Source: Planktothrix tepida (lineage in GTDB: Bacteria; Cyanobacteriota; Cyanobacteriia; Cyanobacteriales; Microcoleaceae). Taken from it: a DNA stretch of 64,000 nucleotides. The stretch's first letter is position 1. Each line of letters begins with the position of its first letter. Position numbers and translations under genes: made by a program. Of the stretch, positions 14,561 through 55,711 are shown in pieces. The stretch is from NCBI RefSeq assembly GCF_904830955.1, contig NZ_LR882970.1; one strand, given 5' to 3'. The notes beneath the pieces are model-generated. The model ran no database searches and was not told where the DNA came from. It saw only the letters and a list, made by a program, of their open reading frames with translations.

Positions 14561-14600
14561 AGGTAAAGTCAGGTAAAGTCAGGTAAAGTCAGGTGAGGGT
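14561..14600. repeat. 4 x 10-bp tandem repeat (GTCAGGTAAA) immediately upstream of, and overlapping the start of, the NB-ARC gene
   Basis: The sequence reads aagtcaggtaaagtcaggtaaagtcaggtaaagtcaggtgagg directly. Confidence 0.85.
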
Positions 14601-14610
14601 GTTTAATCTT

Positions 14611-35758: not shown

Positions 35759-37981
35759 TTGCCTCCTACTTGCTCTGTCCTGTCTGCTGTCTACTGTCTT
35801 TTTGATCGGTACAATGTACGGGATATCTTAGCAAATTTCTATCGGATTGCTGTGCTGTCTCCTGCTTTGTGGATTACTGGAGGTTCCCGTAGTGGCAAAA
35901 CCACTCGCCTCATTGAGTTATTTTGTGAATGGACACCTGTATTGGGAACACGCCCCAACCCCCAACGGGGGAAAAAGAAAACGGAAAAAAGCCGATTAAA
36001 GCTTCAACTCACGGGGACGACGACCTTAATTTTTGCGGCTAATAGTGATAATCGGATGGTCTTAGCAGAGCGTTTGACCACTACACCCCAGGGACAATAT
36101 TCTTTTTACTCCACAACCCCTTTAGGCTTTTTTCAAGATGAAGTGATTCTATTTTGGCCCCTATTAGTCGAAAAGTTAGGGTTAAAAGCTCAATTTCCCC
36201 TGCGATTACGTCCTGAAACTGAACAGGAACTTGCACTGGCACTTTGGAGTCGTGATCTAGAAATCCACAGCTTAGAACGTCCAGGGATTAGCGTTAATCG
36301 TAGGGTGCGCCAAGTCTTGGATCTTCTACAACTGGCTGCTCTGAGTGGAACCTCCATTGAAGACATTCCTCAGATTTTACAGCAGGGGTTTGACTCCCGC
36401 AGACAGACAATAGAAACCCTGAATCAACAAATCGGTTTTTGGTTGAAACAGTGGCAAAACTGGTGTTTAGAACGGGGGTTACTCACCTATGGGATAATTG
36501 CAGACCTCTATGGTCAACACCTGCTGCATCATCCCATCTATCAAAAACACTTACTGCGTCGATATCCAGTGGTTTTAGCTGATGATGTGGATGAATATCC
36601 CGCCCTCGCTCGCCACTTGTTTGAGTTCTTTCTGGAGCAGGGAAAAATGGCTGCATTTACCTACAATCCAAAGGGGGCTGTACGGTTGGGGTTAGGGGCT
36701 GATCCCAATGACCTCGCCAGTTTACAATCCCGTTGTCGTGTGGAAACCTTAGACTCACCCCAAGGTTTAGGAAAAGACCTGGCGCAACCAATTTTGGAAT
36801 TAGTGTTTGAAAATGCGATCGCCTTTCCCGACTCCCTATTATTTTCTCCTAATATTAAATCGATTCAAACCCTATCACGGGCTGATTTACTGCGACAAAC
36901 GGCTGAACAGATTATTGCAGGCGTAAAAACAGGTCAAGTACAACCGGATGAAATTGCTGTTATTGCTCCCGGTTTAGATGCCATTGCCCGTTATACCCTG
37001 CGAGAACTGCTCAACCATGCAGGTATTACGGTGGAGTCGATGCAAGAACAACGTCCCCTCGTCAGTTCTCCCCTGGTTCGAGCTTTATTAACCCTCATGG
37101 CCTTGATTTATCCGGGAAATGGTCGCCTTGTCCACCGAGATGCGATCGCAGAAATGCTGGTAACTCTCAGTTATGAAGGGAACAGGGAATTGTCAACCCC
37201 TGTGATTGACCCTGTACGGGCTGGTCTGTTGGCGGATCATTGTTTTGTGCCAGATTGGGAAAATCCTCGGTTGCTTCCGGTGACGGCTTTTCCCCGTTGG
37301 GATCGGTTGGGATATCAAGCGACCCAAGCTTACCAACAGATTCTGCATTGGATTGAAGTTCAACAACAACAGTATCAACAACGACTCTTAGCCAGTCCGG
37401 TGGTGCTGTTAGACCGGGGAATTCAGCAATTTTTAATTCATGATTCTAGTTTAAGACCCGATCAATTGTCCGTCCTGCGAGAGTTAATGGAAACGGCAAT
37501 TCATTATTGGGAGGTGCAGAATCGTTTACAACTGCAAACTGGTGTTACCCCTTCAGAACAAGTGGGTCAGTTTATTCAGTTATTGCGTCTAGGAGTCGTT
37601 TCTGCGAATCCCTATCCGATATCCAGTTTGGGGATTAAACCTGGGGGGGTGACTTTAGGCACGATTTTCCAATATCGGGCCAGTCGAGCATCCCATCGTT
37701 GGCACTTTTGGCTTGATGTAGGATCTCCCTTGTGGTTAAGTGGGGGAGCAAGTATTCTGTGGGGAGCACCCCTGTTTTTAAGGGAACGAGAGCATCGTCC
37801 CTGGACAGTGGAAGAGGGGTTGGAAGCTGATCTACAACGATTACGTCGTATTATTGTAGATTTGTTGAGTCGGGTCAGCGATCGCTTAATTCTGTGTCAC
37901 AGTGATTTAGCGGTTAATGGCCAAGAACAACTGGGCCCCCTTTATCAGTTATCAGTTATCAGTAATCAGGATTATTATTGA
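35759..37981 (+). CDS. P-loop NTPase, distantly UvrD/AddB-like (degenerate helicase motifs)
   Basis: Walker A-like ITGGSRSGKTT near the N-terminus. VVLADDVDEY resembles helicase motif II. The C-terminal codons run into a heptamer repeat (QLSVISNQ). Assignment is weak. Confidence 0.45.
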   Translation: MPPTCSVLSAVYCLFDRYNVRDILANFYRIAVLSPALWITGGSRSGKTTRLIELFCEWTPVLGTRPNPQRGKKKTEKSRLKLQLTGTTTLIFAANSDNRMVLAERLTTTPQGQYSFYSTTPLGFFQDEVILFWPLLVEKLGLKAQFPLRLRPETEQELALALWSRDLEIHSLERPGISVNRRVRQVLDLLQLAALSGTSIEDIPQILQQGFDSRRQTIETLNQQIGFWLKQWQNWCLERGLLTYGIIADLYGQHLLHHPIYQKHLLRRYPVVLADDVDEYPALARHLFEFFLEQGKMAAFTYNPKGAVRLGLGADPNDLASLQSRCRVETLDSPQGLGKDLAQPILELVFENAIAFPDSLLFSPNIKSIQTLSRADLLRQTAEQIIAGVKTGQVQPDEIAVIAPGLDAIARYTLRELLNHAGITVESMQEQRPLVSSPLVRALLTLMALIYPGNGRLVHRDAIAEMLVTLSYEGNRELSTPVIDPVRAGLLADHCFVPDWENPRLLPVTAFPRWDRLGYQATQAYQQILHWIEVQQQQYQQRLLASPVVLLDRGIQQFLIHDSSLRPDQLSVLRELMETAIHYWEVQNRLQLQTGVTPSEQVGQFIQLLRLGVVSANPYPISSLGIKPGGVTLGTIFQYRASRASHRWHFWLDVGSPLWLSGGASILWGAPLFLREREHRPWTVEEGLEADLQRLRRIIVDLLSRVSDRLILCHSDLAVNGQEQLGPLYQLSVISNQDYY
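37941..37969. repeat. STRR-like heptamer repeat (TTATCAG x about 3) embedded in the last codons of the upstream CDS
   Basis: ttatcagttatcagttatcagtaatcag, translated in frame as LYQLSVISNQ. Confidence 0.85.
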
Positions 37982-38469: not shown

Positions 38470-41400
38470 ATGACAAGTGCAGCAATTAATACTGTTAGGG
38501 CCAGAGTTATTAATACAGAGGAAACCCTGTTAATTTTTCCGACAGAACTTCCGGGTATCTTTCAAAGCTTCACCGGGTTAGTTGGAGAAACGTTACCTGG
38601 TGCCAATGGTGATGTAATTTTCGTCCCTCAAAATCCCCCAGCACCCACCCCAACAACATCTCCCACCCCCACAACATCTCCCACCCCCACAACACCTCCT
38701 ACAACATCCCCCACCACACCCCCCACCACATCCCCCACCACACCCCCTACACCTACACCTTCTGGAAGTGGCGGGACAAATCCGGCTCCGATTGCTAATA
38801 ATGACTTTTTTCAGACGAACTTTGAACAAGCAACTTTTTTTAATGTTCTGGAAAATGATTCTATTCCCGGAGGAAGTGGAACCAGTATCAGTATTGCTCA
38901 ATTTAGCTCAACTTCTAATGGAACTTTAGTGTTTAATGGGGCTGGAATTTTTACTTATACTCCTGACCCGAATTTTTTTGGAGTCGATAGTTTTAGTTAT
39001 ACGATTGAACAAGGAACCGCCCCAGCCCAAGTTTTTATTCAAGTGTTAGCGGGGAATCGCCCGATTATTATTGAAGGAATTGGTAAAGGAACAGAAACCA
39101 GCGATTATATTACAGGTTCCTCTGGAAATGATGTGATCAACGGTTTAGGTGGAGACGATACCATCTTTGGTTTAGCGGGAAATGATGAACTTCGAGGGGA
39201 TGAAGGCAATGATACCCTCTACGGTAATGAAGGAAATGATAGCCTCACCGGAGGAGAAGGTAACGACGAACTCAATGGCGGCAAGGATAATGATTTTCTC
39301 GATGGTAGTGAAGGAGATGATACTGGATTAGGACAACTCGGAAACGATACCGTCATTGGGAATTTGGGAAATGATAGCCTTTATGGAGGTCAAGGAGGCG
39401 ATAGTGTTAGAGGTGGAGAAGGCAATGATCTTGTCTATGGAGATAAAGGTAGTGATGTCCTCTGGGGGGATGCTGGAAATGATACGGTAACAGGCGGAGA
39501 CGAAGCAGACTTGTTGTTTGGAAATGACGGTGCTGATAGTCTCCAAGGAAATCAAGGCAACGATACAATATTTGGTGGCGTTGGTAACGATACTGCCTTC
39601 GGAGGCGAAGGAGATGATCAAATTTCGGGTGAAACTGGAGATGATTTTCTCTGGGGTGGTAAAGGCATTGATACCCTCACAGGTGGCTCAGGAAATGATA
39701 CCTTCGTGATGACTCCCGAAAGTGGAGGAGGGAATTTAGAAGACGCTCAAATTGTGAATGATTTTGAATTGGGCGATCGCATTGGTTTAGCTGGGGGTTT
39801 ACAATTTAGTGACTTATCGATTACCCAAAGTGCTGAAAATGCCGGGAATACGATTATTAGAAACGGCAGTGCAGGAGATTATATTGCCGTTCTCATTGGG
39901 GTAAATAGCACCACCATCAACGCGGATAGTTTTACTCCCATTTCCGGTACGATTATTCCGATTCCAACTCCATCTCCAACAACACCACCGACTCCAACAA
40001 CACCACCGACTCCAACAACACCACCCACACCAACAACACCACCGACTCCAACAACACCACCGACTCCAACAACACCACCCACACCAACAACATCTCCCAC
40101 CCCAACAACACCACCAACTCCAACAACTCCCACACCAACGACTCCACCGACGCCAACCACTCCCCCGTTACAACCCCCCATTGCTCAAAATGACACCGTA
40201 AAACGAACTCCCGATGGTTCTGTCACCTTTAACGTGTTAGTAAATGACACCGACCCCCAAGGAAGTCAACTCACGTTAGTCAGTACCGGGACAGTTGCCA
40301 ATGGTAGTGTAGCGATTACCTCTGGAGGAAATATTACGTTCACCCCTATTCCAGGTTTTACAGGGCCATCAACCTTTCCCTATACCATTCAAAACAGTTA
40401 TGGCTTAACGTCCACGGCTCAAGTCTTAATCACTGTTAATGTTCCCCCGACATTATTAGTGAATAATGGGATTATTATTGCGCTTAATGATGTGGAAAAT
40501 CTTACTGCTGGAAATCTTTTGGCAGTAGACCCTGATAATCCCCCGAATGAAATTTTTTACCAAATTACTCAAGAACCCAGCTTAGGGAATTTACAAGCCA
40601 TCGGGTCTACACCTCAAGTTATTAATGTGGGAGAGAGGTTTACTCAAGAAAATATTAACAACGGTTCCATTGAATATAATTCTCGAAATCTATCAGGAGA
40701 AGACGACTTTCTTTTCGTTCTCACTGATAACATTGGGACGACAACCCAGAATGCCTTTAGTATCACCATTGTTGATGATATTATTTCCGGTACGGACGGC
40801 GATGATTTCATTACAGGTAGTGGTTTAAGTGAAAATATCAGAGGATTTGCTGGAAATGATACCCTCTTAGGACTAGGCAACCGAGATGTTTTACAAGGAG
40901 GAAGCGGACGAGATTCTCTCGATGGGGGAGAAGGAAATGATGTTGTGCAAGGAGATGAAGAAGACGATATTCTCCTGGGTCAAATTGGGAATGATTCTCT
41001 ATTTGGAGGTCAAGGAAATGACTCTCTGGATGGAGGTGCAGGTCGCAATACCTTGTTAGGAGAAGATGGGAATGACACCTTAGTTGCTGGAGATGATAGT
41101 AATTTACTCTCCGGTGGGAATAATGATGATATTCTCATTAGTGGTATTGGGAACGATACCCTTTTAGGGGGCAGTGGAAATGATTCCCTCACTGGAAATG
41201 CTGGAGATGATTCTCTGTATGGAGAAGAAGGACAAGACCTAATTTTTGCCGGAGTGGGTCGAGACTTAGTTCTCGGGGGTGCAGATAACGATACTATTGA
41301 TGCCGGAGAGAATAACGACACCATTTTTGCTGGTGATGGCAATGATTCTATCACCGGTGGAGATGGAGACGATACTATTAGTAGTGGTTCAGGGGCAGAT

Positions 41401-42105
41401 AGCGTTTCAGCAGGAACGGGAGATGATTCCATCTTTGGTGAAGCTGGAAATGACTCGATTTTGGGTGATTTTGGAGAAGATACTATCTATGCTGGAGATG
41501 GCTTAGATAGTTTGTTTGGGGGAATTGGTAATGACGTCATCTTTGGGGATGGTGGCAATGACACAATCTTTGGTGGTGAAGATGATGATACCTTAGCTGG
41601 AGGCTCCGGGGCTGATAGTTTAATTGGGAATGTGGGTAATAATTCTTACTACTATTTAGCTCCCGCAGAAGGCGTTGATGTGATCACAGAATTTAATGTT
41701 AATGGCGATGATCGATTCCTGTTTAGTTCTCTTGGTTTCCCCGGTTTTACCACCGCAGAAGGAACCGTTGTTCCTCTACAAGGAATAATCGTTTCTAATC
41801 TGGGTTCTACAGGGGATGATATTAGTAATAAACAAGTGATCATTTTCCAAGATACCTTTGATAATGTTCAAGCGGTCAATGCAGCTTTGAAAAATCAAAA
41901 AGGTTCCAGTGATACTGCCGCTTTCTTTGTCTATCGCAATAACTTGTCTTATGCCGCTTTCCCGGGTGCTTATGTGATGGGCTATGATCCAAATTTAAGT
42001 GATGATAGTCTCCCGGCTTTTGATTTAGGAATTTTACCGTCTATTGATCCAGCAACCAGCAATATTAGTACCTTAATTACGCCTAGTGATTTTGTCATTA
42101 TCTAG
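38470..42105 (+). CDS. Giant secreted RTX-type protein (1211 aa): N-terminal conserved domain, Pro/Thr-rich linkers, hemolysin-type Ca-binding nonapeptide repeat blocks, cadherin-like beta domains
   Basis: Dozens of GGxGNDxLxG nonapeptides. PTPTTPPT linkers occur at aa about 60-95 and about 500-560. Motifs of the form ANDTDP..D.LT...V.....G.V resemble cadherin-like domains. No N-terminal signal peptide, which suggests a T1SS substrate. Confidence 0.8.
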
Positions 42106-42250: not shown

Positions 42251-45200
42251 ATGACAAGTTCTGCTATCAATACAACTCCTGCTACTTTAGCCTTAAGAAT
42301 TTCTCCGAGTAATGGTTTGTACAATACAGGAAATGGAATCTTAATTTTTCCGACCACAGAATTTTCGGGTAAATTTGAAACATTCCCTGGAAATATTCAA
42401 AATTTAGTCCCCCTTTCTAGTGGCATCGGAACAACTTTACCTGGGGCTGCTGGGGGAGTGCTTTTTGTACCGGATGAACCGATTTTAGAAGCGATATCAA
42501 TTGAAACGAATACACCTGTTTATTTAGCCAAAACAGCAGATGGTCAATATCAAACTTTAGAGGGTCAAACAACAGGAGAGATTCAAGCAGGGCCAGCCGG
42601 AAGTACAATTTTTGTTCCCGATGGATATACCCCTGCAACCCCTAGCCCTACAGCAACTCCCAGTCCAACTGCAACTCCTAGCCCTACAGCCACACCCAGT
42701 CCCATAGCCACACCCAGTCCCACAGCCACACCCAGTCCCACAGCCACACCCAGTCCCACAGCCACCCCTAGTCCTAGCCCCAGCGAGTCCCAACCCATTC
42801 GGATTCAAGGTGCGGGCACAGGTACAGAAGGTGATGATACGATTCTGGGAAGTAATCAAAATGATACGATTTCTGGCTTAGACGGAAATGACAGTATCTT
42901 TGGTTTAGGAGGAAATGACCTTCTACAAGGAGATGCAGGACAAGATCAAATTAATGGTAATGAAGGAAATGATGCCATTGTCGGAGGCGCTGATGATGAC
43001 TGTTTGCGTGGAGGTCAAGGGGATGATTTGATCTTCGGTGATGCCGGGAGTGATCTGGCTTTCGGTGATCGAGATAATGATACCTTGAATGGCGGAACCG
43101 AGGCAGATAGTTTATATGGTGGCCAAGGCAATGATAGTATCCGAGGGGGAGGCGAAGATGACCTCCTCTATGGGGATAAAGGTAATGATACGCTATCGGG
43201 TGAAGTGGGTAATGATAGCGTTAACGGAGGAGATGGAGACGATATTTTATCAGGAAATTCTGGTCAGGATTTCTTGAGTGGCGGTGCGGGAGATGATCAA
43301 CTCTTTGGTGGCGGAGATGACGATAGTTTAGTCGGAGGTCAAGGGGCGGATATCCTCTACGGAGATTTAGGAAATGATACTGTCTCTGGCGGTGATGATA
43401 ACGATCAACTGTTTGGAAATGCCGGAGATGATGTTCTCAATGGAGATAATGGAGCGGATAGTTTATATGGAGGTGCGGGGGAAGATATTCTCAATGGCGG
43501 TAAAGGTCGAGATTTCCTCTCCGGTGATGGGGGGAATGATTTATTAGCAGGGGGAGCCGGAGTAGACACCCTGACTGGAGGTGCGGGAGATGATATTTTT
43601 GTTTTGGGTTATGTTATTACTCAAGCTCCCAATGGGGGCAGCTTTATTACAGGAACTACAGGCGGAACCAGTATTGAATTAGCAGATATTATTACAGATT
43701 TTACCACAACTGATCAGCTTGGGTTATCGGGAGGATTAACATTCCAAGATCTCGAAATTTCCCAAGGTCAAGCCTCCAATGCCAGTAATACAATTATCAA
43801 AGATAAAAATACGGGTGAATTTTTAGCGGTTTTACAAGGGGTTAATGCGACTACCTTAAGCGAATCTAACTTTGTTCTTGACCCCACTGTCCCTCTTCCT
43901 CCCACAACTCCCCCAACCCCAACCCCAACAACCCCACCGACCCCAACCCCAACAACCTCACCGACCCCAACCCCAACAACCCCACCGACCCCAACCCCAA
44001 CAACCTCACCGACCCCAACCCCAACAACCCCACCGACCCCAACCCCAACAACCCCACCCCACCCCACCCCAACAACCCCACCGACCCCAACCCCAACCAC
44101 TCCACCGACCACGACCCCAACCACTCCACCCATACCAACTCCCTCTCAACCCACACCTCCTCCGGTTGAACCCCCAACTCCAGCCGTTTTGCAGGCTGAA
44201 AATGATACGGTATCGGGTTTACAAAATAGTTTATTGGAGATTCCCTCTAATACAATCACCAGTAATGACACAGGGGTTGGACTGCTGACGGTGACAGAAG
44301 TTACTCAACCGTCTAATGGGACAGCAGTTTTAAATCGGGATAGTAGAATGATTACTTATACTCCTGATAAAAATTTTTCTGGTTTAGATACATTTGATTA
44401 TCAAATCCGAGATGATAATGGAGCAACGGGAACGGCTACTATTACCGTTGAAGTTATATCTATTAATGAGCCTCCAATTTTAGATCTTAATAGTTCCCAA
44501 CCGGGCAATAATTACAGCACTGTTTTTGTGGAAGGGACAACTCCGGTCGCAATTACTGGAAGTGTGAGTATTCTTGATGCAGATGATTCAGATTTGACTT
44601 CAGCAACGATTACTTTAATTAATAGTCCCAATGGTGACGTAGAAGGTTTGTCAATACAAGGAGCCTTACCTTCAGGGATTACAGCAGGAGCTTATGATCC
44701 GACAACAGGAATTATTCTCCTAACCGGAACAGCACCCATTTCTAGCTATGAAATTGCACTGTCTCAAGTTGTTTATAGTAATACTTCCCAAAATCCTGAT
44801 CCTGAAAATCGAATCATTGATGTAGTCGTTACGGATCATGAAAATGATAGTAATATTGCAATTAGCACAGTTACTATTGATGCGGTTAATAATCCTCCCG
44901 TTAATACGGTTCCAGGAACACAATTAACAAATGGTAGTCAACCGATTGTATTTAGTCAAGCTAATAATAATCAAATTTTGATTAGTGACCCGGATGCTGA
45001 TGGAAACCCGATTCAAGTTACCTTAACAGCTAGTACGGGAACTTTAACCTTGGGTGCAACACCGGCTAATGTGGAAATTTCTGGCGATGGAACAACAACA
45101 GTAACCTTAGTAGGTCGTCTGGAAAATATTAATACGGCTCTTAATGGTTTAACGTTCGCACCTCCTGCATCCTTGAATACCTCGGCAACTCTCCAAATTG

Positions 45201-48200
45201 TGACAACGGATAACGGAAATACAGGTAGTGGTGGCCCCCAAACAGCTTCTAGTACGATTAATATTAATCAGCCGAATCAGCCACCGAATGCGGTGAATGA
45301 TAGTGTGGTGGGGACGCAAAATCAACTCTTAACAATATCCTCTTCCACTCTCTTAGCAAATGATACCGATCCGAATAATGATCCGTTAACGATTACTCAA
45401 GTTAGTAATCCCACAAATGGAACTGTTACCCTCAGTAATGGAAATGTTCTGTTTACCCCAGTCAATAACTATACAGGGCCGGCTAGTTTCTTGTATACCA
45501 TTAGTGATGGTCAGGGCGGAACCAGTAGCGCGACGGTTAATATTAATATTAATCAGCCGAATCAGCCACCGAATGCGGTGAATGATAGTGTGGTGGGGAC
45601 GCAAAATCAACTCTTAACAATATCCTCTTCCACTCTCTTAGCAAATGATACCGATCCGAATAATGATCCGTTAACGATTACTCAAGTTAGTAATCCCACA
45701 AATGGAACTGTTACCCTCAGTAATGGAAATGTTCTGTTTACCCCAGTCAATAACTATACAGGGCCGGCTAGTTTCTTGTATACCATTAGTGATGGTCAGG
45801 GCGGAACCAGTAGCGCGACGGTTAATATTAATATTAATCAGCCGAATCAGCCACCGAATGCGGTGAATGATAGTGTGGTGGGGACGCAAAATCAACTCTT
45901 AACAATATCCTCTTCCACTCTCTTAGCAAATGATACCGATCCGAATAATGATCCGTTAACGATTACTCAAGTTAGTAATCCCACAAATGGAACTGTTACC
46001 CTCAGTAATGGAAATGTTCTGTTTACCCCAGTCAATAACTATACAGGGCCGGCTAGTTTCTTGTATACCATTAGTGATGGTCAGGGCGGAACCAGTAGCG
46101 CGACGGTTAATATTAATATTAATCAGCCGAATCAGCCACCGAATGCGGTGAATGATAGTGTGGTGGGAACGCAAAATCAACTCTTAACAATATCCTCTTC
46201 CACTCTCTTAGCAAATGATACCGATCCGAATAATGATCCGTTAACCATTACACAAGTTAGTAATCCCACAAATGGGACGGTTACCCTCAGTAATGGAAAT
46301 GTTCTGTTTACCCCAGTCAATAACTATACAGGGCCGGCTAGTTTCTTGTATACCATTAGTGATGGTCAGGGTGGAACCAGTAGCGCGACGGTTAACATTA
46401 CTGTTAATCCCAATCAACCCCCAACCCTAGACTTAAATGGTAGCCAAGCGGGAAATAATACCCAAGTAGCCTTTCAACAAGGACAACCTGCTGTTGCGAT
46501 CGCGAGTGGGAGTAGTATTGTAATTACGGATGCAGACAATACCACCATCCAGTCCGCCACAATTACTGTAACAAATCCACTCAATGGCGGTGGGGAAAGT
46601 TTATCAGCTAATGGTTCGTTACCTTCGGGGATTACCGCCAGTAGTTATAACAGCACCACCGGAATTTTAACCTTAACGGGGAATGCCTCACTAGCGGCTT
46701 ATCAAACCGCCATTGGACAAGTTGTTTATAACAATACAGCTAATCCTCCCAATACCACCACCCGCCTAGTACAGGTTCAGGTGAATGATGGAACGAGCAA
46801 TAGTAATACAGCGGCAAGTACCATTACGGTGATTGCTTTAAATCAGCCTCCTGTTGCTGTTACCGATGGCCCAATTTTTACTAACAATAGCATCCAATTC
46901 CCGATTTCTCCCTTAGCCAATGACACTGACCCCGATGGAGATGCTCTAACGTTAACTTCTGTGGATAATCCTCCCACCGCCCAAGGGTTAGTGACTCAAG
47001 CGGGGTCATTAGTTCAGTATACTCGCCTGGGAAGTAATACCGGGGTGGATAGTTTCAACTACAGTATTAGTGATGGTCAAGGGGGGACGGCGACGGGTCA
47101 GATTAATGTTGAATTGTTACCCTTAGCGGATGGGACTCCGAACTTAGTAACGGGAGGCAATTTTGGCGATAACCTCAATGGTTTGGGGGGAAATGACACC
47201 CTAACCGGTTTGGGGGGGAATGACACCCTGCGAGGAAATGACGGAAATGATAGTTTATCCGGTGGAAGCGGAACAGATCTGTTACAGGGAGGAATTGGAG
47301 AGGATACCCTGAATGGCGGTTTAACACCGGATACGATGACCGGAAATGAGGGAATTGACCAATTTCGTTATGAAACTGCTAATGATGGCGGTGGGTCGGG
47401 TTTTAATGCAAGTTCTAATACCGAGATTAAAGCTCAAATTGGAAGTGCTTTATATGATACTATCACCGATTTTGAAGGATTAGGGGCTGCGGTCGGAGAT
47501 CAGATTAATTTTGCCACAACGGTGATTCAATCCTTTGCAAATATTGCCACAACGGTACAAACCAATATTACTGGAGATGTGATTCCGGGTACAAGTCCAG
47601 GTCTATTTGCCTTTAATGATGGCAGTAGCACTTACCTAATTTATGATGGTAATGGTGATAATACAACGGGTAATGATTCTCGAATTTTGGCAAAATTAGA
47701 CAACGTTAATGGTGTGACAACCCTTAATGTTAATGACTTTGCTGGAATTGCTGGCTTAAATCTTCCTCCAGTAGTTCAAGGGAATACGACCGTTAATATT
47801 ACTGAAGATATAACTCAAAATTTGGGAATTTCATCCCCAGTTGATCCCAATAATGACCCGTTAATTATTACTGTTAATAGTATTCCTGATAGCACTAAAG
47901 GAATCGTCCGTATTACGGGTCAAACTAACTCTATTATTATTGGTCAAACGTTAACGAGTGCTGAAATTAGCCAATTAGAATTTGTACCAAAAGCTAATGT
48001 TAATGGTTCAGCCGGGGTGTTTTTATATACCGTGAGTGACGGTGAAAATCCTGCGGTCAGTCAAACCGTTACGATTAATATTACGGCCGTTAATGATTTA
48101 CCTGTTGCGGTTAATGATGGCCCAATTTTCACCAATAATAGTATCCAATTCCCCATTTCTCCCCTGGATAACGATACTGACCCCGATGGAGATGTTCTAA

Positions 48201-49003
48201 CGTTAACTTCTGTGGATAATCCCCCTACAGCACAAGGGTTAGTGACTCAATCGGGGTCATTAGTTCAGTATACTCGTCTGGGAAATGCTACCGGGGTGGA
48301 TAGTTTCAACTACACTATTAGTGACGGTCAAGGCGGAACAGCCACTGCTAATATTACGATTAACCTGTTACCTGTTGCTGATAATAACCCTAACTTAGTA
48401 ACGGGAGGCAGTTTTAGCGATAACCTCAATGGTTTGGGGGGAAATGATACCCTCGTCGGTCTGGAGGGGAATGACACCCTGCGGGGAAATGATGGTAATG
48501 ATAGTTTATCGGGGGGAAGTGGCAACGACCTTCTCGATGGAGGTGCAGGACAAGATAAGCTGTTTGGGGGTTTAGGACGGGATAGCCTCATTGGTAACTT
48601 AGGGGAAACAGACCTATTTATTTATAGTGATGCACTTGATGGAGGCGGTACTGCTTTTAATGCGGTGGGAACTACAATTACGACTCAAATTGGCAGTGGT
48701 TTCTATGATTCCATTAACAATTTTGAAGGTTTGGGTCAAGTGGGGGGTGATCAAATTAGCGTATCAACCAGTTTAATTGCAGATGCAGCTAATATTCTCC
48801 TCAGTGTACAAACGAATCTTTCAACCGATGTCTTGCCTACAAATAACCCTAGTCTATTTGCCTTTGATAATGGTAAGGATACTTACTTAATCTATGATGG
48901 CAATGGGAATAACACATCAGGAAATGATTCTCGAATTCTAGCTAAATTAGAGGGAATTACAGGCGTAACATCCTTGAATTCCGATGATATTATTCTGTTT
49001 TAG
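42251..49003 (+). CDS. Giant secreted RTX/cadherin-like protein (2250 aa), paralog of 38470..42105, with 4 identical tandem 95-aa domains and a duplicated C-terminal module
   Basis: Same N-terminal domain (MTS...ILIFPT...LPGAAGGVLFVPDEP), PT linkers, RTX nonapeptide blocks, and cadherin-like ANDTDPNNDPLTITQV domains. The C-terminal ...SRILAKL...GVT.LN..D... motif is shared with the first protein. Confidence 0.8.
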   Translation: MTSSAINTTPATLALRISPSNGLYNTGNGILIFPTTEFSGKFETFPGNIQNLVPLSSGIGTTLPGAAGGVLFVPDEPILEAISIETNTPVYLAKTADGQYQTLEGQTTGEIQAGPAGSTIFVPDGYTPATPSPTATPSPTATPSPTATPSPIATPSPTATPSPTATPSPTATPSPSPSESQPIRIQGAGTGTEGDDTILGSNQNDTISGLDGNDSIFGLGGNDLLQGDAGQDQINGNEGNDAIVGGADDDCLRGGQGDDLIFGDAGSDLAFGDRDNDTLNGGTEADSLYGGQGNDSIRGGGEDDLLYGDKGNDTLSGEVGNDSVNGGDGDDILSGNSGQDFLSGGAGDDQLFGGGDDDSLVGGQGADILYGDLGNDTVSGGDDNDQLFGNAGDDVLNGDNGADSLYGGAGEDILNGGKGRDFLSGDGGNDLLAGGAGVDTLTGGAGDDIFVLGYVITQAPNGGSFITGTTGGTSIELADIITDFTTTDQLGLSGGLTFQDLEISQGQASNASNTIIKDKNTGEFLAVLQGVNATTLSESNFVLDPTVPLPPTTPPTPTPTTPPTPTPTTSPTPTPTTPPTPTPTTSPTPTPTTPPTPTPTTPPHPTPTTPPTPTPTTPPTTTPTTPPIPTPSQPTPPPVEPPTPAVLQAENDTVSGLQNSLLEIPSNTITSNDTGVGLLTVTEVTQPSNGTAVLNRDSRMITYTPDKNFSGLDTFDYQIRDDNGATGTATITVEVISINEPPILDLNSSQPGNNYSTVFVEGTTPVAITGSVSILDADDSDLTSATITLINSPNGDVEGLSIQGALPSGITAGAYDPTTGIILLTGTAPISSYEIALSQVVYSNTSQNPDPENRIIDVVVTDHENDSNIAISTVTIDAVNNPPVNTVPGTQLTNGSQPIVFSQANNNQILISDPDADGNPIQVTLTASTGTLTLGATPANVEISGDGTTTVTLVGRLENINTALNGLTFAPPASLNTSATLQIVTTDNGNTGSGGPQTASSTININQPNQPPNAVNDSVVGTQNQLLTISSSTLLANDTDPNNDPLTITQVSNPTNGTVTLSNGNVLFTPVNNYTGPASFLYTISDGQGGTSSATVNININQPNQPPNAVNDSVVGTQNQLLTISSSTLLANDTDPNNDPLTITQVSNPTNGTVTLSNGNVLFTPVNNYTGPASFLYTISDGQGGTSSATVNININQPNQPPNAVNDSVVGTQNQLLTISSSTLLANDTDPNNDPLTITQVSNPTNGTVTLSNGNVLFTPVNNYTGPASFLYTISDGQGGTSSATVNININQPNQPPNAVNDSVVGTQNQLLTISSSTLLANDTDPNNDPLTITQVSNPTNGTVTLSNGNVLFTPVNNYTGPASFLYTISDGQGGTSSATVNITVNPNQPPTLDLNGSQAGNNTQVAFQQGQPAVAIASGSSIVITDADNTTIQSATITVTNPLNGGGESLSANGSLPSGITASSYNSTTGILTLTGNASLAAYQTAIGQVVYNNTANPPNTTTRLVQVQVNDGTSNSNTAASTITVIALNQPPVAVTDGPIFTNNSIQFPISPLANDTDPDGDALTLTSVDNPPTAQGLVTQAGSLVQYTRLGSNTGVDSFNYSISDGQGGTATGQINVELLPLADGTPNLVTGGNFGDNLNGLGGNDTLTGLGGNDTLRGNDGNDSLSGGSGTDLLQGGIGEDTLNGGLTPDTMTGNEGIDQFRYETANDGGGSGFNASSNTEIKAQIGSALYDTITDFEGLGAAVGDQINFATTVIQSFANIATTVQTNITGDVIPGTSPGLFAFNDGSSTYLIYDGNGDNTTGNDSRILAKLDNVNGVTTLNVNDFAGIAGLNLPPVVQGNTTVNITEDITQNLGISSPVDPNNDPLIITVNSIPDSTKGIVRITGQTNSIIIGQTLTSAEISQLEFVPKANVNGSAGVFLYTVSDGENPAVSQTVTINITAVNDLPVAVNDGPIFTNNSIQFPISPLDNDTDPDGDVLTLTSVDNPPTAQGLVTQSGSLVQYTRLGNATGVDSFNYTISDGQGGTATANITINLLPVADNNPNLVTGGSFSDNLNGLGGNDTLVGLEGNDTLRGNDGNDSLSGGSGNDLLDGGAGQDKLFGGLGRDSLIGNLGETDLFIYSDALDGGGTAFNAVGTTITTQIGSGFYDSINNFEGLGQVGGDQISVSTSLIADAANILLSVQTNLSTDVLPTNNPSLFAFDNGKDTYLIYDGNGNNTSGNDSRILAKLEGITGVTSLNSDDIILF
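45266..46405. repeat. 4 x 285-bp near-identical in-frame tandem repeats (95-aa cadherin-like domain units)
   Basis: Unit starts fall at 45266, 45551, 45836 and 46121. Copies 1-3 are identical by eye. Copy 4 has about 5 substitutions. Shadow ORFs 45386..45610, 45671..45895 and 45956..46180 are identical. Confidence 0.9.
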
Positions 49004-49082: not shown

Positions 49083-49691
49083 TTATTGTTTTTGAGAGGG
49101 TGTATCTAATTTTAACTGAATGGAATTGTCTTTTTGCAACTCCACAACATTTTCAGGGGGAGTTAAACAAGTTTTTAAAACTTGATCAACGCCTAAATTT
49201 GTATTAGCTTGAATCAAGCCCACAACACAAAAAGACAACTTTTCAGGTAATACACTCCGACGACAACTATCAAGAATATTCAAGGGGTCGGATGAGTTAG
49301 TATTGCTGCTAATATTGACCACACAATTGGCTAATTCATCGGGACGCCGAACTTGCAAACAACCTGATAAAATTTGTTCTACAGGTAGGGCGGCAACATT
49401 TTTTTGCATTTGTGTGACACAATACCCCATATTTCTCGGCCTAGCTGCCATTGAACAGCCTTGAGTTGCCAATTCAACGGACAGACCAGCGTTAGTTAAC
49501 TGTTGAGTACAGTTTCTATAGTCTTGTCGCCGAATTTGCACAAAAGACGGAAAAGCAGATGCCGGAGCAACGGGGACAAACAACGGAAATAAACTCACCG
49601 TTGCCACCACTGACAACCAACGCTGATTACGGGATAGGTGAGTCAGAAGTGCTTTTTTCAACCCAGAAGACATCACAATACAACGATTCAT
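49083..49691 (-). CDS. Secreted Cys-rich repeat protein of unknown function
   Basis: The signal-peptide-like N-terminus (LSVVATVSLFPLFVPVAPASA) follows a charged N-region. Four repeats follow with paired Cys (L..C........C). Confidence 0.5.
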   Translation of the reverse strand: MNRCIVMSSGLKKALLTHLSRNQRWLSVVATVSLFPLFVPVAPASAFPSFVQIRRQDYRNCTQQLTNAGLSVELATQGCSMAARPRNMGYCVTQMQKNVAALPVEQILSGCLQVRRPDELANCVVNISSNTNSSDPLNILDSCRRSVLPEKLSFCVVGLIQANTNLGVDQVLKTCLTPPENVVELQKDNSIQLKLDTPSQKQ

Positions 49692-50066: not shown

Positions 50067-51089
50067 TTAGAGAATATCTGAAGCGACTTTAACTTGATCT
50101 CGTCCTTCTGACTTGGCGTGATACATGGCTTTGTCTGCCGCACTAATCAACTCTTGTAAATGGGATTCTTCTCCGGGAATAGAACAGGCAACCCCTAAAC
50201 TACTGGTAATATAAGAACGGATGGGAGAGGAACGATGGGGAATTTTTAAATATCGAATTTGCAGTTGAATTTCTTCAGCAACTTTACGCGCATTTTCTTG
50301 ATCTAAATAGGGTAAAATTACAGCAAATTCTTCTCCCCCATAACGGGCGACTAAATAGGGTTCTGGTTCCCTAACTCTACGAACTGCCGTTTCAATAGCC
50401 TGGGCTATTTGTTGTAAACAATAATCCCCGGCTAAATGACCGTAAGTATCATTATAAAGTTTGAAAAAATCCACATCACATAAGATCATGGAAAGATAGT
50501 CTTCTTGGCAGGATTGCCATTGTTCTTGTAAGTAGCTATAAAATTGACGACGATTGGCTACTTGAGTTAAATCATCTAAAGAAGCTAGACGTTTCAGGTG
50601 TTGGTTTTCAGCTTGTAATTTAATTAATAATTTTTGCTGCATTTCAATTTGATTTTTGAGACTTTTAATCGTTGTATCAATCGGTAAATCACCAAAGGAA
50701 AAATTCGAGGCTGTCAAGGGATTATTCGCCTCAAGGGTTGAGGTAAAGGACGTTAGATATTGTACATTCAAGTCAGAATAACTATTCATCCATAACACCG
50801 GAACATTTTCAGTGATTTTAGCTTGCTTCAACTTGTGATAGGTTTCTTGGGGATTAGCTTGGTTGGGGTCAAAGGGAATCAGAATAACGTCTGGATTCGT
50901 ATATTCTGCATGAAAAATCGCACTATCTGGATGAGGCGCAATCACAAAACTTAAGTGCAGTTGGTTCAATAATTTAACAAATGATCTAAAATTTAAGGGA
51001 TGGGTTTCTTCTATAATAATAATCATATAGGGCTTTAATTGATTTTGATTCATCACGGGCGTGCAACCTGAGAAATTTAAGTTCAGCAT
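50067..51089 (-). CDS. Diguanylate cyclase (GGDEF) with an N-terminal degenerate receiver-like domain
   Basis: RYGGEEFAVILP is the GGEEF active site. The N-terminal domain is REC-like but lacks the canonical DD pair. Confidence 0.8.
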   Translation of the reverse strand: MLNLNFSGCTPVMNQNQLKPYMIIIIEETHPLNFRSFVKLLNQLHLSFVIAPHPDSAIFHAEYTNPDVILIPFDPNQANPQETYHKLKQAKITENVPVLWMNSYSDLNVQYLTSFTSTLEANNPLTASNFSFGDLPIDTTIKSLKNQIEMQQKLLIKLQAENQHLKRLASLDDLTQVANRRQFYSYLQEQWQSCQEDYLSMILCDVDFFKLYNDTYGHLAGDYCLQQIAQAIETAVRRVREPEPYLVARYGGEEFAVILPYLDQENARKVAEEIQLQIRYLKIPHRSSPIRSYITSSLGVACSIPGEESHLQELISAADKAMYHAKSEGRDQVKVASDIL

Positions 51090-51351
51090 TTTGACCTAAT
51101 CCATTACGTCGGACTGAGTTAACTATCTAATGTTTGGTTAAAGATGACAGTGATAGCGCTTGGATGAAGCCGTGATAGTTCAAAAGCTTTGGCGTGACAG
51201 GGAAGGAAGATTTCCTGTGACTGACTGGGAAGTTTAAAAGTGATTGAGATCACAAGTTGACCTCGGTTGGCTCTGGGGTGCTGCGCGGTTGACCCTGGGT
51301 TGTTGAGGGTAGGATAGGAAAAGATAGATTTACTGTAGGGACTTTCTGGTT

Positions 51352-51738
51352 ATGTCAATGTGGCCTAGTTTAGTAACCGCTTGTGCGTTGCTGCTATATT
51401 TAGCTGTGACGATTAATGTGGGGCGTGCCCGAATCAAGTACAAAATTATGCCCCCTCAAATGAACGGAGACGAGAATTTTGAGCGAGTGGTGCGCGTCCA
51501 ACAGAACACCCTCGAACAATTGGTTTTGTTTCTCCCGACGCTGTGGTTGTTTTCGGAATGGGTGAGTCCAATTTGGGCTGCTGGTTTAGGTGCAGTTTGG
51601 GTCATCGGACGAATTTTATATGCTTGGGGATATTACCAAGTGGCTGAGAAACGGATGCTGGGGTTTGCCATCAGTTCCCTAGTAACATTTACTCTTCTTG
51701 GGGGTGCTATAGTGGGAATAATCCTTTCCAGCCTGTAG
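51352..51738 (+). CDS. MAPEG-family membrane protein (microsomal GST-like)
   Basis: Four predicted TM helices. ERVVRVQQNTLEQLVLFLP matches the MAPEG ERVRRAHxNxLExxPxF motif. Confidence 0.65.
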   Translation: MSMWPSLVTACALLLYLAVTINVGRARIKYKIMPPQMNGDENFERVVRVQQNTLEQLVLFLPTLWLFSEWVSPIWAAGLGAVWVIGRILYAWGYYQVAEKRMLGFAISSLVTFTLLGGAIVGIILSSL

Positions 51739-51794
51739 AAATTCAGATTATTTATTTTCTCAACAGTTGGTAACGCTCTGTTTTTTGGAACACG

Positions 51795-52022
51795 ATGGCA
51801 ATCGAACTTTTATCTTCAGAACAAACCCTTAACTTCGACCTCATCGAGCATCAATTGTTGCAATCGGCTTTATTACAAGCTGAAACTTTGGGTGAATTGA
51901 CAGCTTTGATTGTTAATTATACTCATTGGGAAATTATGCAAGCCTTTGAACGACTTCCCTCTCCTCAACAACAGCGTGTACAGGAACTTTGGGAAGTCAA
52001 TATTCCTCAACGTTGGCAATAA
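51795..52022 (+). CDS. Small hypothetical protein (75 aa)
   Basis: ORF only. It would overlap the alternative upstream start of the next gene. Confidence 0.35.
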   Translation: MAIELLSSEQTLNFDLIEHQLLQSALLQAETLGELTALIVNYTHWEIMQAFERLPSPQQQRVQELWEVNIPQRWQ

Positions 52023-52032
52023 TCATATTCTA

Positions 52033-53643
52033 ATGTCCAACTTTCCTGGTCAACCCCAACAATCAGAACACCAGAGTCATCCCGACCCTGATCTTAACGG
52101 TTTTGAATACCCGGTGATTGATCTTGAACCGCCTTCCCCTAAGAAACCCAATTTCTGGCGGTTCTTAGCAATAGTCGCTAGTGTCGCTTTATTGATGGGA
52201 CTCTTGCTATTTGCGAATGGGGTTTCTGTAAATACCACAATCTTTAGCAGTATTGCTCTAATGATTCTGGTTTTATGTTATCGATATCCCCGTCAAGGGT
52301 TATGGGCTTTTTTAATTTATTTACCCTTTGCGGGGACAATTTCTTATTGGGTTGGCAACGATCATTTTATTTTCCATTTAGCAAAAGATGGGTTTTATAT
52401 CCCGGCTTTAATCGGTTTAATTGTTGAATTAAGAAAAAAAAAGTTACCGCTTATTGTTCCGCCTCAACTTAGAATTCCCCTGTTAATTTTGTTCACGATT
52501 GCTATTGTTACCCTCTTTGCTGTTAATGGTGTTCAACAACGACACGCCACGGTCGATAACCAACCGTTTGCCGTGGGACTCTTCGGCTTAAAAGTTTTAC
52601 TGGGATATATTCCTCTGATTACCGGAGCCTATTATTTGATTCGGACTCGCAAAGAACTGCAATTTTTTTCTCGTTTGCAAATTATTTTAATCGTCATTTG
52701 TTGCATTTTAGGATTCATTCAATTTATATTAATAATAACGGGGTATTGTTCGGATAATAGCGGTTTACCAGAACATTTATTATTGAGGGCAAATGTGCAG
52801 CGTAAGTGTTTTGTGGGAGGCGCATTAGGATATTACCCATCGGAAAACTTTATTCGTTTACCCGGAACCTTTGTCGCGCCTTGGCATTGGTCTTGGTTTT
52901 TAGTATCCAGCACATTTTTTGGTTTTGCAACGGCCTTTAGTGACCCAAAATTGAAGTGGCGTTTAACGGGTTTAGCGGCGTTATCGTTAGTGATGCTCAA
53001 TGCCATTATTTCTGGTCAAAGAACAGCTTTGTTAGCGGTTCCATCCATTGTGATTTTGTTGCTAGTGGCGACCAGTCATATCTCACGGGTTAAGCGCTTA
53101 TTAGTGATTGTTGTAGGGATGGTGGCTTTAATTCTCGCCACATCAATTTTCGCACCAGAGGTCATGTCTGAACGAGTTGATAGCTTGATTGGACGTTGGA
53201 ATGCTGATCCCCCGGCAGTGTTTTTAACGAAACAAACGAATTTGAGTTTGAAAGCCCATCGCGGTTTTTTAGGCAATGGTTTAGGACAAGCAACAACCGC
53301 AGCCAGAGGATTAGGAAAAACACGATTAATTGAAGCTTATTATCCTAAGTTGTACTATGAAATTGGCCCCTTTGGAGTTGCCGCTTTTTTATTCCTGGTG
53401 ACAACAATTACGATTTTAGGGTTTAAATCCTATCATCAATTAATCGATCATAGTTTATGGGGTTATGGAATTACATTTTGGATTTTTATTGCTTTAATTA
53501 GCTATAATCCCTATTGGTATCCTCTCGATACCGATCCAGTGGCTGTTTATTATTGGTTTTTAGTGGGTGTCCTATTCAAATTGCCTAAAATTAAACAACA
53601 AGATCTGAAAAAAGAACAGCAACAAGAGCCCCTTCCGCTTTAA
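52033..53643 (+). CDS. Polytopic membrane protein, O-antigen ligase/polymerase (Wzy_C)-like
   Basis: About 12 hydrophobic segments. The GQRTALLAV motif region is Wzy_C-like. The start was chosen at the ATG (MSNFPGQ) after the stop of 51795..52022, rather than the ORF-track 51910. Confidence 0.5.
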   Translation: MSNFPGQPQQSEHQSHPDPDLNGFEYPVIDLEPPSPKKPNFWRFLAIVASVALLMGLLLFANGVSVNTTIFSSIALMILVLCYRYPRQGLWAFLIYLPFAGTISYWVGNDHFIFHLAKDGFYIPALIGLIVELRKKKLPLIVPPQLRIPLLILFTIAIVTLFAVNGVQQRHATVDNQPFAVGLFGLKVLLGYIPLITGAYYLIRTRKELQFFSRLQIILIVICCILGFIQFILIITGYCSDNSGLPEHLLLRANVQRKCFVGGALGYYPSENFIRLPGTFVAPWHWSWFLVSSTFFGFATAFSDPKLKWRLTGLAALSLVMLNAIISGQRTALLAVPSIVILLLVATSHISRVKRLLVIVVGMVALILATSIFAPEVMSERVDSLIGRWNADPPAVFLTKQTNLSLKAHRGFLGNGLGQATTAARGLGKTRLIEAYYPKLYYEIGPFGVAAFLFLVTTITILGFKSYHQLIDHSLWGYGITFWIFIALISYNPYWYPLDTDPVAVYYWFLVGVLFKLPKIKQQDLKKEQQQEPLPL

Positions 53644-53863
53644 TTTTTTTCAAAAACCTTGACACAAATATTCAGGGCATAAAACCAACAGGAATTGAGT
53701 AAAGCTCTAACAAAATGTTATAATTATGGCTTGTATTTTATAGAATTGACACAGTTCGGTTTAATGAGGTAAGCCACTTTACCCAATACCAGCATCCCCA
53801 GAGAAACTTTACCCAGTACACCAATAAACAATCAGAGTGGGTCTTTATTCCAACCTGTAGTGA

Positions 53864-55708
53864 TTGGGAATGACCTCAATCCGTACCCCATTTTATCTGT
53901 TTCCAATTGAAATGAATCATTACAACCTGGATTTAACAAAAACTGAAGATATTCTCATCGTTGATGATACACCGGACAACCTCCATTTATTGTCCCGAAT
54001 GCTCACTCGTCAAGGATACAATGTACGCAAAGCTTTAAATGGTGCGATGGCATTAACGGCGGCTCAAACCGTTGCTCCTGATTTAATTCTGCTGGATATT
54101 ATGATGCCAGAAATGGATGGTTATGAGGTTTGTCAGAATCTCAAAGCTAATGCTAAAACCGCAGAAATTCCAGTAATCTTTTTAAGTGCTTTGGATGATG
54201 TTCTCGATAAAGTTAAAGGTTTTCAAGTGGGTGGAGTAGACTATATTACTAAACCCTTCCAATTTGAAGAAGTTTTAGCACGAGTTCAAAATCAATTAGC
54301 ATTACGATCCGCAGAATTGGAAATTCGGGTTTTAAATTCAGAATTAGAAGCACGGGTAAAGGAACGGACTCAGCAACTTGAAGAAGCTAATGCCAAATTA
54401 TTAAAAATGGCCCTTCATGATTCCCTAACGGGTTTACCCAACCGGGCCTTATTAATGACGGATTTACACCAATCCATTCAACGATCTAAAGCTGACCCTA
54501 ATTATCAGTTTGCGGTATTATTTTTAGATTGCGATCGCTTTAAAGTTGTTAATGATTCTTTAGGGCATTTAGTCGGGGATGAACTCTTGATTTTAATTGC
54601 TCGTCGTCTTAACAGTTATATTAAACCCCAGAATACATTAGCCCGTCTAGGAGGAGATGAATTTGCAATTTTATTAACAGAAATTCCCGACTTTCCTCAT
54701 GTTATTGAATTAGCCGATCAGATTTTAGACTCTTTTTCTAAACCTTTTCATTTAGAACGACATGAAGTTTTTATTAATGCCAGTATTGGGATTGTAATCG
54801 GTCATTCAGACTATAATGAACCGGAACATTTACTGCGTGATGCAGACACAGCTATGTATCGAGCTAAAGCATTAGGAAAAGGACAATATCATATCTTTGA
54901 TCCGGTGATGCACGCCGCTGCTTTAGAGCGATTACAGTTAGAAACCGATTTACGTCGGGGTCTGGAACAGCAAGAGTTAGTCGTTCATTATCAACCAATT
55001 GTCGATTTGAATAGCGGAAAAATTGCTGGATTTGAAGCCTTAGTTCGATGGCGTCATCCTGAACGGGGTTTAGTTCCACCTGGTCTCTTTATTCCCATTG
55101 CTGAAGAAACGGGTTTAATTACTCCCATTGGCTATTGGGTTTTATTTGAAGCCTGTCATCAACTGCAAACTTGGCAAAAACAAAATTTAGTGGATTCCCG
55201 TTTATTTGTTAGTGTTAATTTATCTGTTAAACAGTTTACTCAACCCAATTTATTAGAACAAATTGATCAAGTTTTAGAACAAAGTCAACTTGATCCTGAT
55301 TGTTTAAAATTGGAAATTACCGAAAGTGCGATTATGGAGAATGATAAGGATGTAGCTATCATTCTCAAAGAACTCAGAAAACGTCATATTTTAATTAGTA
55401 TTGATGATTTTGGAACGGGTTATTCTTCCCTGAGTTATCTCCATTCTTTTCCGGTTGACACCCTAAAAGTCGATAAATCCTTTGTTCAACGTCTTAACTT
55501 AGAATCGGAAAATGTTGGCTTAATTCCTGTGATTATTAGTTTAGCTAAAACCATGAATATGAGTGTGGTTGCTGAAGGGATTGAATTACCTGAACAATTA
55601 GCCATCCTTAAAGAATTAAATTGTGGATTTGGGCAGGGATATTTCTTTTCTAAACCGTTACCCGGAGAAGAATTAATTAAATTGCTTTCATTAACTCCCC
55701 AATGGTAA
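53864..55708 (+). CDS. Response regulator with REC - GGDEF - EAL domains (c-di-GMP turnover)
   Basis: REC is ILIVDDTPDNLHLL...LILLDIMMPEMDGY. GGDEF is LGGDEFAIL. The EAL domain shows ...EALVRW..., DDFGTGYSSL and KVDKSFV. Confidence 0.85.
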   Translation: MGMTSIRTPFYLFPIEMNHYNLDLTKTEDILIVDDTPDNLHLLSRMLTRQGYNVRKALNGAMALTAAQTVAPDLILLDIMMPEMDGYEVCQNLKANAKTAEIPVIFLSALDDVLDKVKGFQVGGVDYITKPFQFEEVLARVQNQLALRSAELEIRVLNSELEARVKERTQQLEEANAKLLKMALHDSLTGLPNRALLMTDLHQSIQRSKADPNYQFAVLFLDCDRFKVVNDSLGHLVGDELLILIARRLNSYIKPQNTLARLGGDEFAILLTEIPDFPHVIELADQILDSFSKPFHLERHEVFINASIGIVIGHSDYNEPEHLLRDADTAMYRAKALGKGQYHIFDPVMHAAALERLQLETDLRRGLEQQELVVHYQPIVDLNSGKIAGFEALVRWRHPERGLVPPGLFIPIAEETGLITPIGYWVLFEACHQLQTWQKQNLVDSRLFVSVNLSVKQFTQPNLLEQIDQVLEQSQLDPDCLKLEITESAIMENDKDVAIILKELRKRHILISIDDFGTGYSSLSYLHSFPVDTLKVDKSFVQRLNLESENVGLIPVIISLAKTMNMSVVAEGIELPEQLAILKELNCGFGQGYFFSKPLPGEELIKLLSLTPQW

Positions 55709-55711
55709 ATT

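Follow-up and report, generated by a model that had tools for sequence, protein, structure and literature searches.

The RTX adhesins of proteobacteria contain tandem β-sandwich domains, which are stiffened by Ca2+ and act as extenders (PMC7493085). RtxA of Legionella pneumophila has from 5 to 40 of these repeats depending on the strain, and MpIBP has about 120 identical ones (PMC7493085; PMC2257941). In genome assemblies, the repeats of such adhesins are commonly lost or collapsed (PMC7493085). The cyanobacterial RTX proteins with known roles are extracellular or S-layer proteins that are linked to motility (PMC3034196). The array described here is located in a cyanobacterial genome, in a stretch of 64,000 nucleotides from Planktothrix tepida (NCBI RefSeq assembly GCF_904830955.1, contig NZ_LR882970.1), which is referred to below as the window. 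It consists of 285-bp units and is part of an uninterrupted open reading frame (ORF) at positions 42251-49003 of the plus strand that encodes a protein of 2250 residues. With high probability, the array is an in-frame variable-number tandem repeat (VNTR) of a complete cadherin-like β-sandwich domain in a giant, probably secreted, calcium-binding RTX protein, and its units change in number by recombination or slippage.

The array occupies positions 45257-46409. Tandem Repeats Finder describes it as 4.0 head-to-tail copies with a period of 285, 98% matches and 0% indels. A repeat search of the window gave identities of 100, 100, 100 and 96% for copies that start at 45257, 45542, 45827 and 46112:

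45257-45541, plus strand: copy 1 of the unit, type A, 285 bp or 95 codons, identical to copies 2 and 3
45542-45826, plus strand: copy 2 of the unit, type A, with the same 285 nt as copy 1
45827-46111, plus strand: copy 3 of the unit, type A, with the same 285 nt as copy 1
46112-46409, plus strand: copy 4 of the unit, type B, terminal, in which the similarity to the unit fades over the final ~13 nt

A first-pass annotation of the window had placed the same array at 45266-46405, with boundaries that are shifted by 9 nt relative to those given above. It had also reported that copies 1 to 3 look identical and that copy 4 differs from them at about five sites. Direct comparison shows 100% identity of copies 1-3 over 285 nt. 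Copy 4 does differ, but the earlier number is a slight undercount: there are 7 differences from copies 1-3 in the best register (45257), all 7 of them synonymous, and 9 in the register that starts at 45266, namely 7 synonymous ones and 2 at the 3' junction. As protein, all four 95-residue units are 100% identical. Perfect 285-nt periodicity spans 855 nt (the three identical copies), which is far above chance expectation, and the near-perfect homology across the A-A-A-B units totals 1.15 kb. The array is in frame, as 285 equals 3 x 95. No further copy of the unit was found elsewhere in the 64-kb window, and a conversion donor copy elsewhere in the window was rejected for this reason.

Orthologous loci were fetched by means of a conserved ORF of 200-202 residues, which lies just downstream of the gene on the minus strand (49083-49691 in the window). 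Across the genus the loci form a series with 0, 1, 2, 3 and 4 units, the flanks being otherwise conserved. P. tepida PCC 9214, the strain to which exact look-ups of flanking proteins assign the window, has four units in the order A-A-A-B. P. pseudagardhii No713 has three, A-A-B, and both its A and B units are identical to those of PCC 9214; its protein has 2155 residues, that is 2250 minus 95. The sole indel between these two genomes over 12.2 kb is one 285-bp unit. The gap is aligned at 45266-45550, a placement that is arbitrary among identical copies. The same 12.2 kb contain 110 mismatches, of which only 6 fall outside 47000-48750.

The two units of Planktothrix sp. FACHB-1365 are 96% identical to one another. 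P. agardhii and P. rubescens have a single unit in 12 assemblies, including chromosome-scale ones, and some metagenome scaffolds of the P. rubescens lineage have two, the array being interrupted by a gap of 100 N. The flanks of a two-unit P. rubescens scaffold are 99.3-99.4% identical to those of one-unit alleles, and the coordinate offset equals one unit. A metagenome-assembled genome (MAG) of P. agardhii has two or more units and a gap inside the array. A metagenome scan anchored on the 202-residue gene yielded four loci, one of which (L093, with 1 unit) was informative. In P. serta PCC 8927 there are 0 units, and the absence is clean, at the junction between ...SSTISINQ and PNQPPTLDL.... 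An N in the P. serta draft was considered as a possible gap in the array and rejected, for it falls within a Pro/Thr linker and, as stated, the absence of the unit is clean.

The array is thus an intragenic VNTR: its units are in frame and head to tail, and their count differs between close relatives that have kept the flanks. The first-pass annotation had anticipated a variable number of 95-residue domains between strains and had named a fixed number as the observation that would argue against it. The series from 0 to 4 units bears out the former, and a fixed number was not seen, PCC 9214 and No713 having four and three units with no other indel between them in 12.2 kb. All alleles from contiguous, ungapped assemblies are intact ORFs of 1555-2480 residues. 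An on/off phase-variable contingency locus was rejected because the unit is in frame and the alleles are intact.

The A and B units are separated by 7 synonymous and 0 non-synonymous differences (dS = 0.113 substitutions per synonymous site; dN, the non-synonymous equivalent, = 0). Each unit has 67 synonymous and 218 non-synonymous sites, and the probability that all 7 differences would be synonymous by chance is ~4e-5. To judge from these substitutions, the amino acid sequence of the unit is under purifying selection. The A copies are identical and the A/B dS is 0.11; the A duplications are therefore much younger than the split between A and B. Within genomes, A and B differ at 7 sites and the two FACHB-1365 units, F1 and F2, at 17. 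Between genomes, there are 21 differences between B and F2 and 20 between A and F2. Both FACHB-1365 units carry a common derived Thr-to-Ser change. Since the units of one genome are closer to each other than to their positional counterparts, and share this change, the comparison indicates concerted evolution among the units. An earlier suggestion of recent expansion or gene conversion agrees with the identity of the A copies and with the mutual closeness of the FACHB-1365 units.

Whole units would be gained or lost by unequal homologous recombination, either between sister chromosomes or between genome copies, or by replication slippage. Gene conversion between units is a further candidate process behind the pattern. 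We infer this mechanism from comparison of the sequences. The terminal copy, which has unique sequence on one flank, would take part in fewer exchanges and would thus have retained its 7 synonymous differences. The length of the unit is divisible by three and equals one folded domain. Each event would therefore leave the protein intact and lengthen or shorten it by a single rigid domain. The result would be variation in the length of the protein, not on/off phase variation.

The variation could instead be purely historical, in that the differences are fixed between lineages, the array does not change over the time scales of laboratory culture or of populations, and the cells of one strain are all alike. 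This is the alternative that survives best, although it is on balance unlikely. It is favored by the single unit of all 12 P. agardhii/rubescens assemblies and by the fact that the three-unit and four-unit states are each known from one genome; furthermore, the comparison rests on assemblies and not on reads. However, PCC 9214 and No713 have only 6 mismatches in ~8 kb upstream and yet are one unit apart, and the one-unit and two-unit alleles of the P. rubescens lineage, with their 99.3-99.4% identical flanks, coexist within one metagenome project. The 570-855 bp of perfect homology in the array are also far above the minimum for RecA-dependent exchange, which argues against a static array.

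Each 285-bp unit encodes one tandem-95/Big_9/Cadherin_5 domain of 95 residues. A single unit alone matches NF012211 with 64 bits (E = 9e-18). The unit was modeled with AlphaFold2 in the domain register (window 45278-45580), using an alignment of 61 sequences that includes 60 family domains. The model is an all-β sandwich of seven strands with a predicted local distance difference test score (pLDDT) of 96.9. A Foldseek search against the PDB returned the EC domains of cadherins and protocadherins, the cadherin-like modules of SraP, Rib, the FrhA/MpIBP adhesin (split) domains and the S-layer protein Sap. The only solved relative by sequence is one chain named 'RTX protein' (E = 5.6e-6). Pfam, NCBIfam, the AlphaFold model and the Foldseek matches are all in agreement with the earlier assignment of the unit as a 95-residue β-sandwich domain.

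Neighboring domains of ~95 residues are ~85% or more identical in at least 34 of the 120 best homologs, a sample that is biased to repeat-rich proteins by the query. A scan of genome contigs with generic tandem-95 motifs (NDTDPNND and similar) found 80 unrelated loci from many phyla, with one distant Planktothrix MAG. The tandem-95 family is widespread across phyla, and the motif scan is uninformative on copy number.

The complete 2250-residue protein matches the Pfam families Big_9 (PF17963; E = 8e-134, 437 bits, 8 stretches) and Cadherin_5 (PF17892; E = 1e-117, 385 bits, 8 stretches), with a significant match to Cadherin_4 as well. The RTX nonapeptides are recognized by HemolysinCabind (PF00353; E = 5e-71, 234 bits, 14 stretches). 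The match to NCBIfam NF012211, 'tandem-95 repeat protein', covers 8 stretches and scores 400.7 bits against a cut-off of 90. By family criteria, the protein is both a tandem-95 protein and an RTX-repeat protein. Its N-terminal part consists of 125 residues without a family match, a Pro/Thr/Ser linker, a large RTX block and a second Pro/Thr linker. Linker 2 is followed by a diverged tandem-95 domain, two other β-type segments, the four identical units and two modules of ~417 residues. Each module comprises a tandem-95 domain, a short RTX block and a domain of ~120 residues without family assignment. The limits of the tandem-95 domains were obtained by hmmsearch with a domain hidden Markov model built from the 2250-residue protein itself. 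The features of the gene are as follows:

42251-49003, plus strand: giant RTX/tandem-95 (cadherin-like) ORF that holds the array, 2250 residues (ORF list, Pfam, NCBIfam)
42629-42784, plus strand: Pro/Thr/Ser-rich linker 1 with an 18-bp tandem repeat (Tandem Repeats Finder, 42650-42774)
42820-43610 (approximate), plus strand: RTX nonapeptide block 1 (best PF00353 stretch at residues 388-423; motif scan)
43898-44146, plus strand: Pro/Thr-rich linker 2 with a 24-bp tandem repeat, 9.5 copies (Tandem Repeats Finder, 43904-44130)
44192-44443, plus strand: first tandem-95 domain, diverged from the array unit, residues 648-731 (hmmsearch)
46819-49003, plus strand: two ~417-residue modules, M1 (46819-48069) and M2 (48070-49003), offset by 1251 bp and 82% identical at their start
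46826-47107, plus strand: tandem-95 domain of C-terminal module M1, residues 1526-1619 (hmmsearch)
47156-47371 (approximate), plus strand: RTX nonapeptide block 2 (repeat search; motif scan)
48074-48355, plus strand: tandem-95 domain of C-terminal module M2, residues 1942-2035 (hmmsearch)
48407-48595 (approximate), plus strand: RTX nonapeptide block 3 (repeat search; motif scan)

The tandem-95 domains might, like the domains of RTX adhesins, be spacers or extenders that set the reach of the protein or its spacing at the surface. Gain or loss of a unit would then alter how far a secreted or surface protein reaches and leave frame and fold undisturbed. Several points weigh against this picture of a variable, secreted extender. 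The unit count of each strain is derived from assemblies and not from raw reads. The counts for FACHB-1365, P. serta and the metagenomes come from fragmented draft or metagenome assemblies; if they are short-read assemblies, identical units could be under-counted and the values of 2 and 1 are lower bounds there. We infer secretion, a surface location and an extender or adhesin role solely from domain content. The N-terminal 125 residues have no match in Pfam or NCBIfam. The C-terminal 160 residues match RTX repeats alone, and the last ~120 of them are without a family match.

The gene neighborhood and the layout of the protein point in the same direction. No genes for the ABC transporter, membrane-fusion or TolC-like components of a type I secretion system and no LapG/LapD-like genes were found by a Pfam scan of 33 of the 35 window ORFs of at least 150 residues; the other two, at 18669-19994 (a TPR protein) and 20892-22073 (RtcB), were named by exact protein look-up. 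Linkage of substrate and transporter genes is not obligatory for type I secretion substrates. The layout is unlike that of canonical LapA-type adhesins, for there are three RTX blocks in total, one of which is near the N terminus. The extender is short, with four identical and three diverged tandem-95 domains, and the single C-terminal RTX region of the LapA type is not present. The protein is not placed among the LapA-type adhesins, because its layout differs and neither a retention module nor the regulators were found. In searches for homologs, a 1000-residue query retrieved proteins of 1750 residues or less and no full-length ortholog, and the N-terminal 125 residues retrieved one partial match. 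An exact look-up of the complete protein gave no match.

Two other repeats of the gene vary in copy number as well. The ~417-residue module is present three times in the FACHB-1365 ortholog (2480 residues), twice in most orthologs and once in the 1555-residue ortholog of L107, a P. agardhii assembly. The encoded length of linker 2 ranges from 48 to 88 residues among Planktothrix orthologs, mostly in steps of 8 residues. The alignment of the PCC 9214 draft to the window is broken in this linker, between 43986 and 44068. When PCC 9214 is compared with No713, the segment 47000-48750 within the two duplicated modules accounts for 104 of the 110 mismatches. Over their first 300 bp, M1 and M2 are 90% identical in P. 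pseudagardhii and 82% in the window. Among 98 sites that differ, there are 54 at which the P. pseudagardhii base is the one found in the paralogous module. This pattern suggests intragenic gene conversion between the ~417-residue modules.

It has to be considered whether the protein is exposed at the surface and diversifying selection maintains its differences in copy number, for example through cyanophages, grazers or antibodies or through benthic and planktic differences in reach. This is doubtful. Three levels of repeats, the 285-bp unit, the 1251-bp module and the 24-bp Pro/Thr linker, vary independently, and the 3' half of the gene has a mosaic divergence of ~6% compared to <0.1% elsewhere. 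A tandem-95 repeat gene of Vibrio alginolyticus had large-fragment mutations in phage-resistant mutants (PMC8521149), and the higher counts of 3-4 units come from Lineage 3, to which benthic ecotypes belong (PMC9366434). Nevertheless, selection on the repeated domains is purifying rather than diversifying (dN = 0), and the sample is small. A simple association of a benthic habit with higher unit counts is contradicted by P. serta, which is benthic and has 0 units. A broader version, in which the protein is a hypervariable surface 'molecular ruler' and the variation of the cassette (0-4), the 417-residue module (1-3) and the linker (48-88 residues), together with conversion, is selected rather than neutral, seems no less speculative.

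Assembly of the locus is a problem in its own right. For PCC 9214 there are two public assemblies: a draft in fragments and a complete genome from PacBio data. In the draft, a single N replaces window positions 45257-46161 and the gene is split into pieces of 946 and 954 residues. The gap is exactly at the array; therefore, the array defeated the draft assembly. Two sets of metagenome scaffolds have 100-N gaps within the orthologous array. The earlier warning that the array is prone to assembly collapse is justified by the gaps in both the draft and the scaffolds. The genomes of PCC 9214 and No713 are PacBio assemblies made from 10-kb libraries in the same study (PMC9366434). It is highly improbable that the arrays of these two strains are in truth equally long and that assembly created the difference in copy number: such repeats are known to be mis-assembled (PMC7493085), the PCC 9214 draft failed completely at the array and the PCC 9214 genome comes from older PacBio RS II data with PCR/Sanger gap closing (PMC9366434), but the array is just 1.15 kb long compared to the 10-kb libraries, the counts of both assemblies are clean integers and in frame, their A and B units are the same and free of indel errors, and other lineages, with chromosome-scale assemblies among them, show independent differences of whole units.

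The gene is flanked by two conserved neighbors:

38470-42105, plus strand: upstream paralog, an RTX/tandem-95 protein of 1211 residues (Pfam, NCBIfam, synteny)
49083-49691, minus strand: conserved ORF of 202 residues without a Pfam or NCBIfam family, directly downstream in every Planktothrix locus examined

The 1211-residue paralog has the same 'MTS-AINT' start and Pro/Thr tandem repeats of its own, for example at 40000-40157. The PCC 9214 draft has a second gap in this gene, where window positions 38540-38769, a Pro/Thr linker, are missing. The pair of RTX genes (1211 and 2250 residues) is syntenic across the genus. Upstream of the pair is an ORF of 740 residues (35759-37981, plus strand), also without a Pfam or NCBIfam family, with counterparts of 727 residues in P. 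serta and 706 residues in P. agardhii at the same position. The constant association of the 202- and 740-residue ORFs with the RTX pair might reflect a functional link.

The region adjoining the RTX genes (50067-56740) contains a cyclic di-GMP (c-di-GMP) cluster, composed of GGDEF, response-regulator-GGDEF-EAL and response-regulator-GGDEF genes, and hpsL, a gene of hormogonium polysaccharide biosynthesis (645 bits against a cut-off of 640). Compared to the window, P. pseudagardhii has an insertion of ~1.1 kb near 51027 and is without 54209-54608, inside the GGDEF-EAL gene. The c-di-GMP/hpsL neighborhood is absent from the P. agardhii/rubescens loci examined, and because it is not conserved there, a functional link of the RTX gene to these genes was rejected. 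Next to this region, a large serine recombinase is encoded on the minus strand at 56742-58037 (Resolvase, Recombinase and zinc-ribbon domains), the position of which is conserved in Lineage-3 genomes.

Positions 7343-17344 hold several STAND NTPase (NB-ARC/NACHT) and TPR genes, among them a kinase-STAND-TPR fusion at 11434-14079; this may be a conflict or defense-type region. A small CHAP-domain protein with RTX repeats is encoded at 10234-11244. The G+C content is 30-37% in the first 24 kb (1-24000) and 40-47% over the sensor kinase and RTX region (26000-50000). Part of the rise reflects coding content rich in Gly, Asp, Pro and Thr.

The variation in repeat number is real but ordinary for a large repetitive surface protein, and involves no new mechanism. 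In practical terms, the array is a weak point at which assemblies of Planktothrix break or count too few units, and it provides a simple PCR length marker, in 285-bp steps, for typing Planktothrix lineages. Among the surface-type proteins of the genus, the 2250-residue protein is one of the most variable and is a candidate for studies of adhesion, motility and phage interaction.

Several known systems can be compared with the locus. The array unit is the domain of the NF012211 family (Big_9/Cadherin_5 proteins), which is defined by sequence alone, and the Planktothrix member is distinguished by the combination of this domain with RTX blocks and Pro/Thr linkers. The streptococcal Alp/Rib proteins (alpha C protein and Rib) have identical in-frame repeats of one Ig-like domain each, and Rib is among the fold matches. 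In alpha C protein, deletion of repeats shifts the copy number by whole units. The Alp/Rib proteins are, however, Gram-positive, LPXTG-anchored and without RTX repeats, and the fold similarity is weak (TM score ~0.5-0.6). SwmA of Synechococcus WH8102, oscillin of Phormidium uncinatum and Sll1951 of Synechocystis are cyanobacterial RTX-repeat surface proteins (PMC3034196). They have RTX repeats in common with the Planktothrix protein and are not described as having tandem-95 domains. The presence of hpsL and c-di-GMP genes near the RTX gene in the window is a further parallel to these motility-linked proteins, but one that does not extend to P. agardhii/rubescens.

The RTX adhesins MpIBP of Marinomonas primoryensis, LapA of Pseudomonas, FrhA of Vibrio cholerae and RtxA of Legionella differ from the Planktothrix protein in several respects. 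Their arrays have tens to more than 100 units compared to 4 identical ones here, and MpIBP and LapA have BIg/VCBS domains whereas the Planktothrix protein has tandem-95/Big_9 domains. The latter also has a duplicated C-terminal module, three RTX blocks and no recognizable N-terminal retention module, and its host is a cyanobacterium. In other respects the two are alike: a very large RTX protein carries tandem β-sandwich domains of ~95-105 residues with near or complete DNA identity, and the number of repeats depends on the strain. Because strain-dependent repeats are already documented in RTX adhesins, the array is a further case of known behavior, and apparently the first record, in a bloom-forming cyanobacterium, of the domain-cassette length variation known from the proteobacterial proteins.

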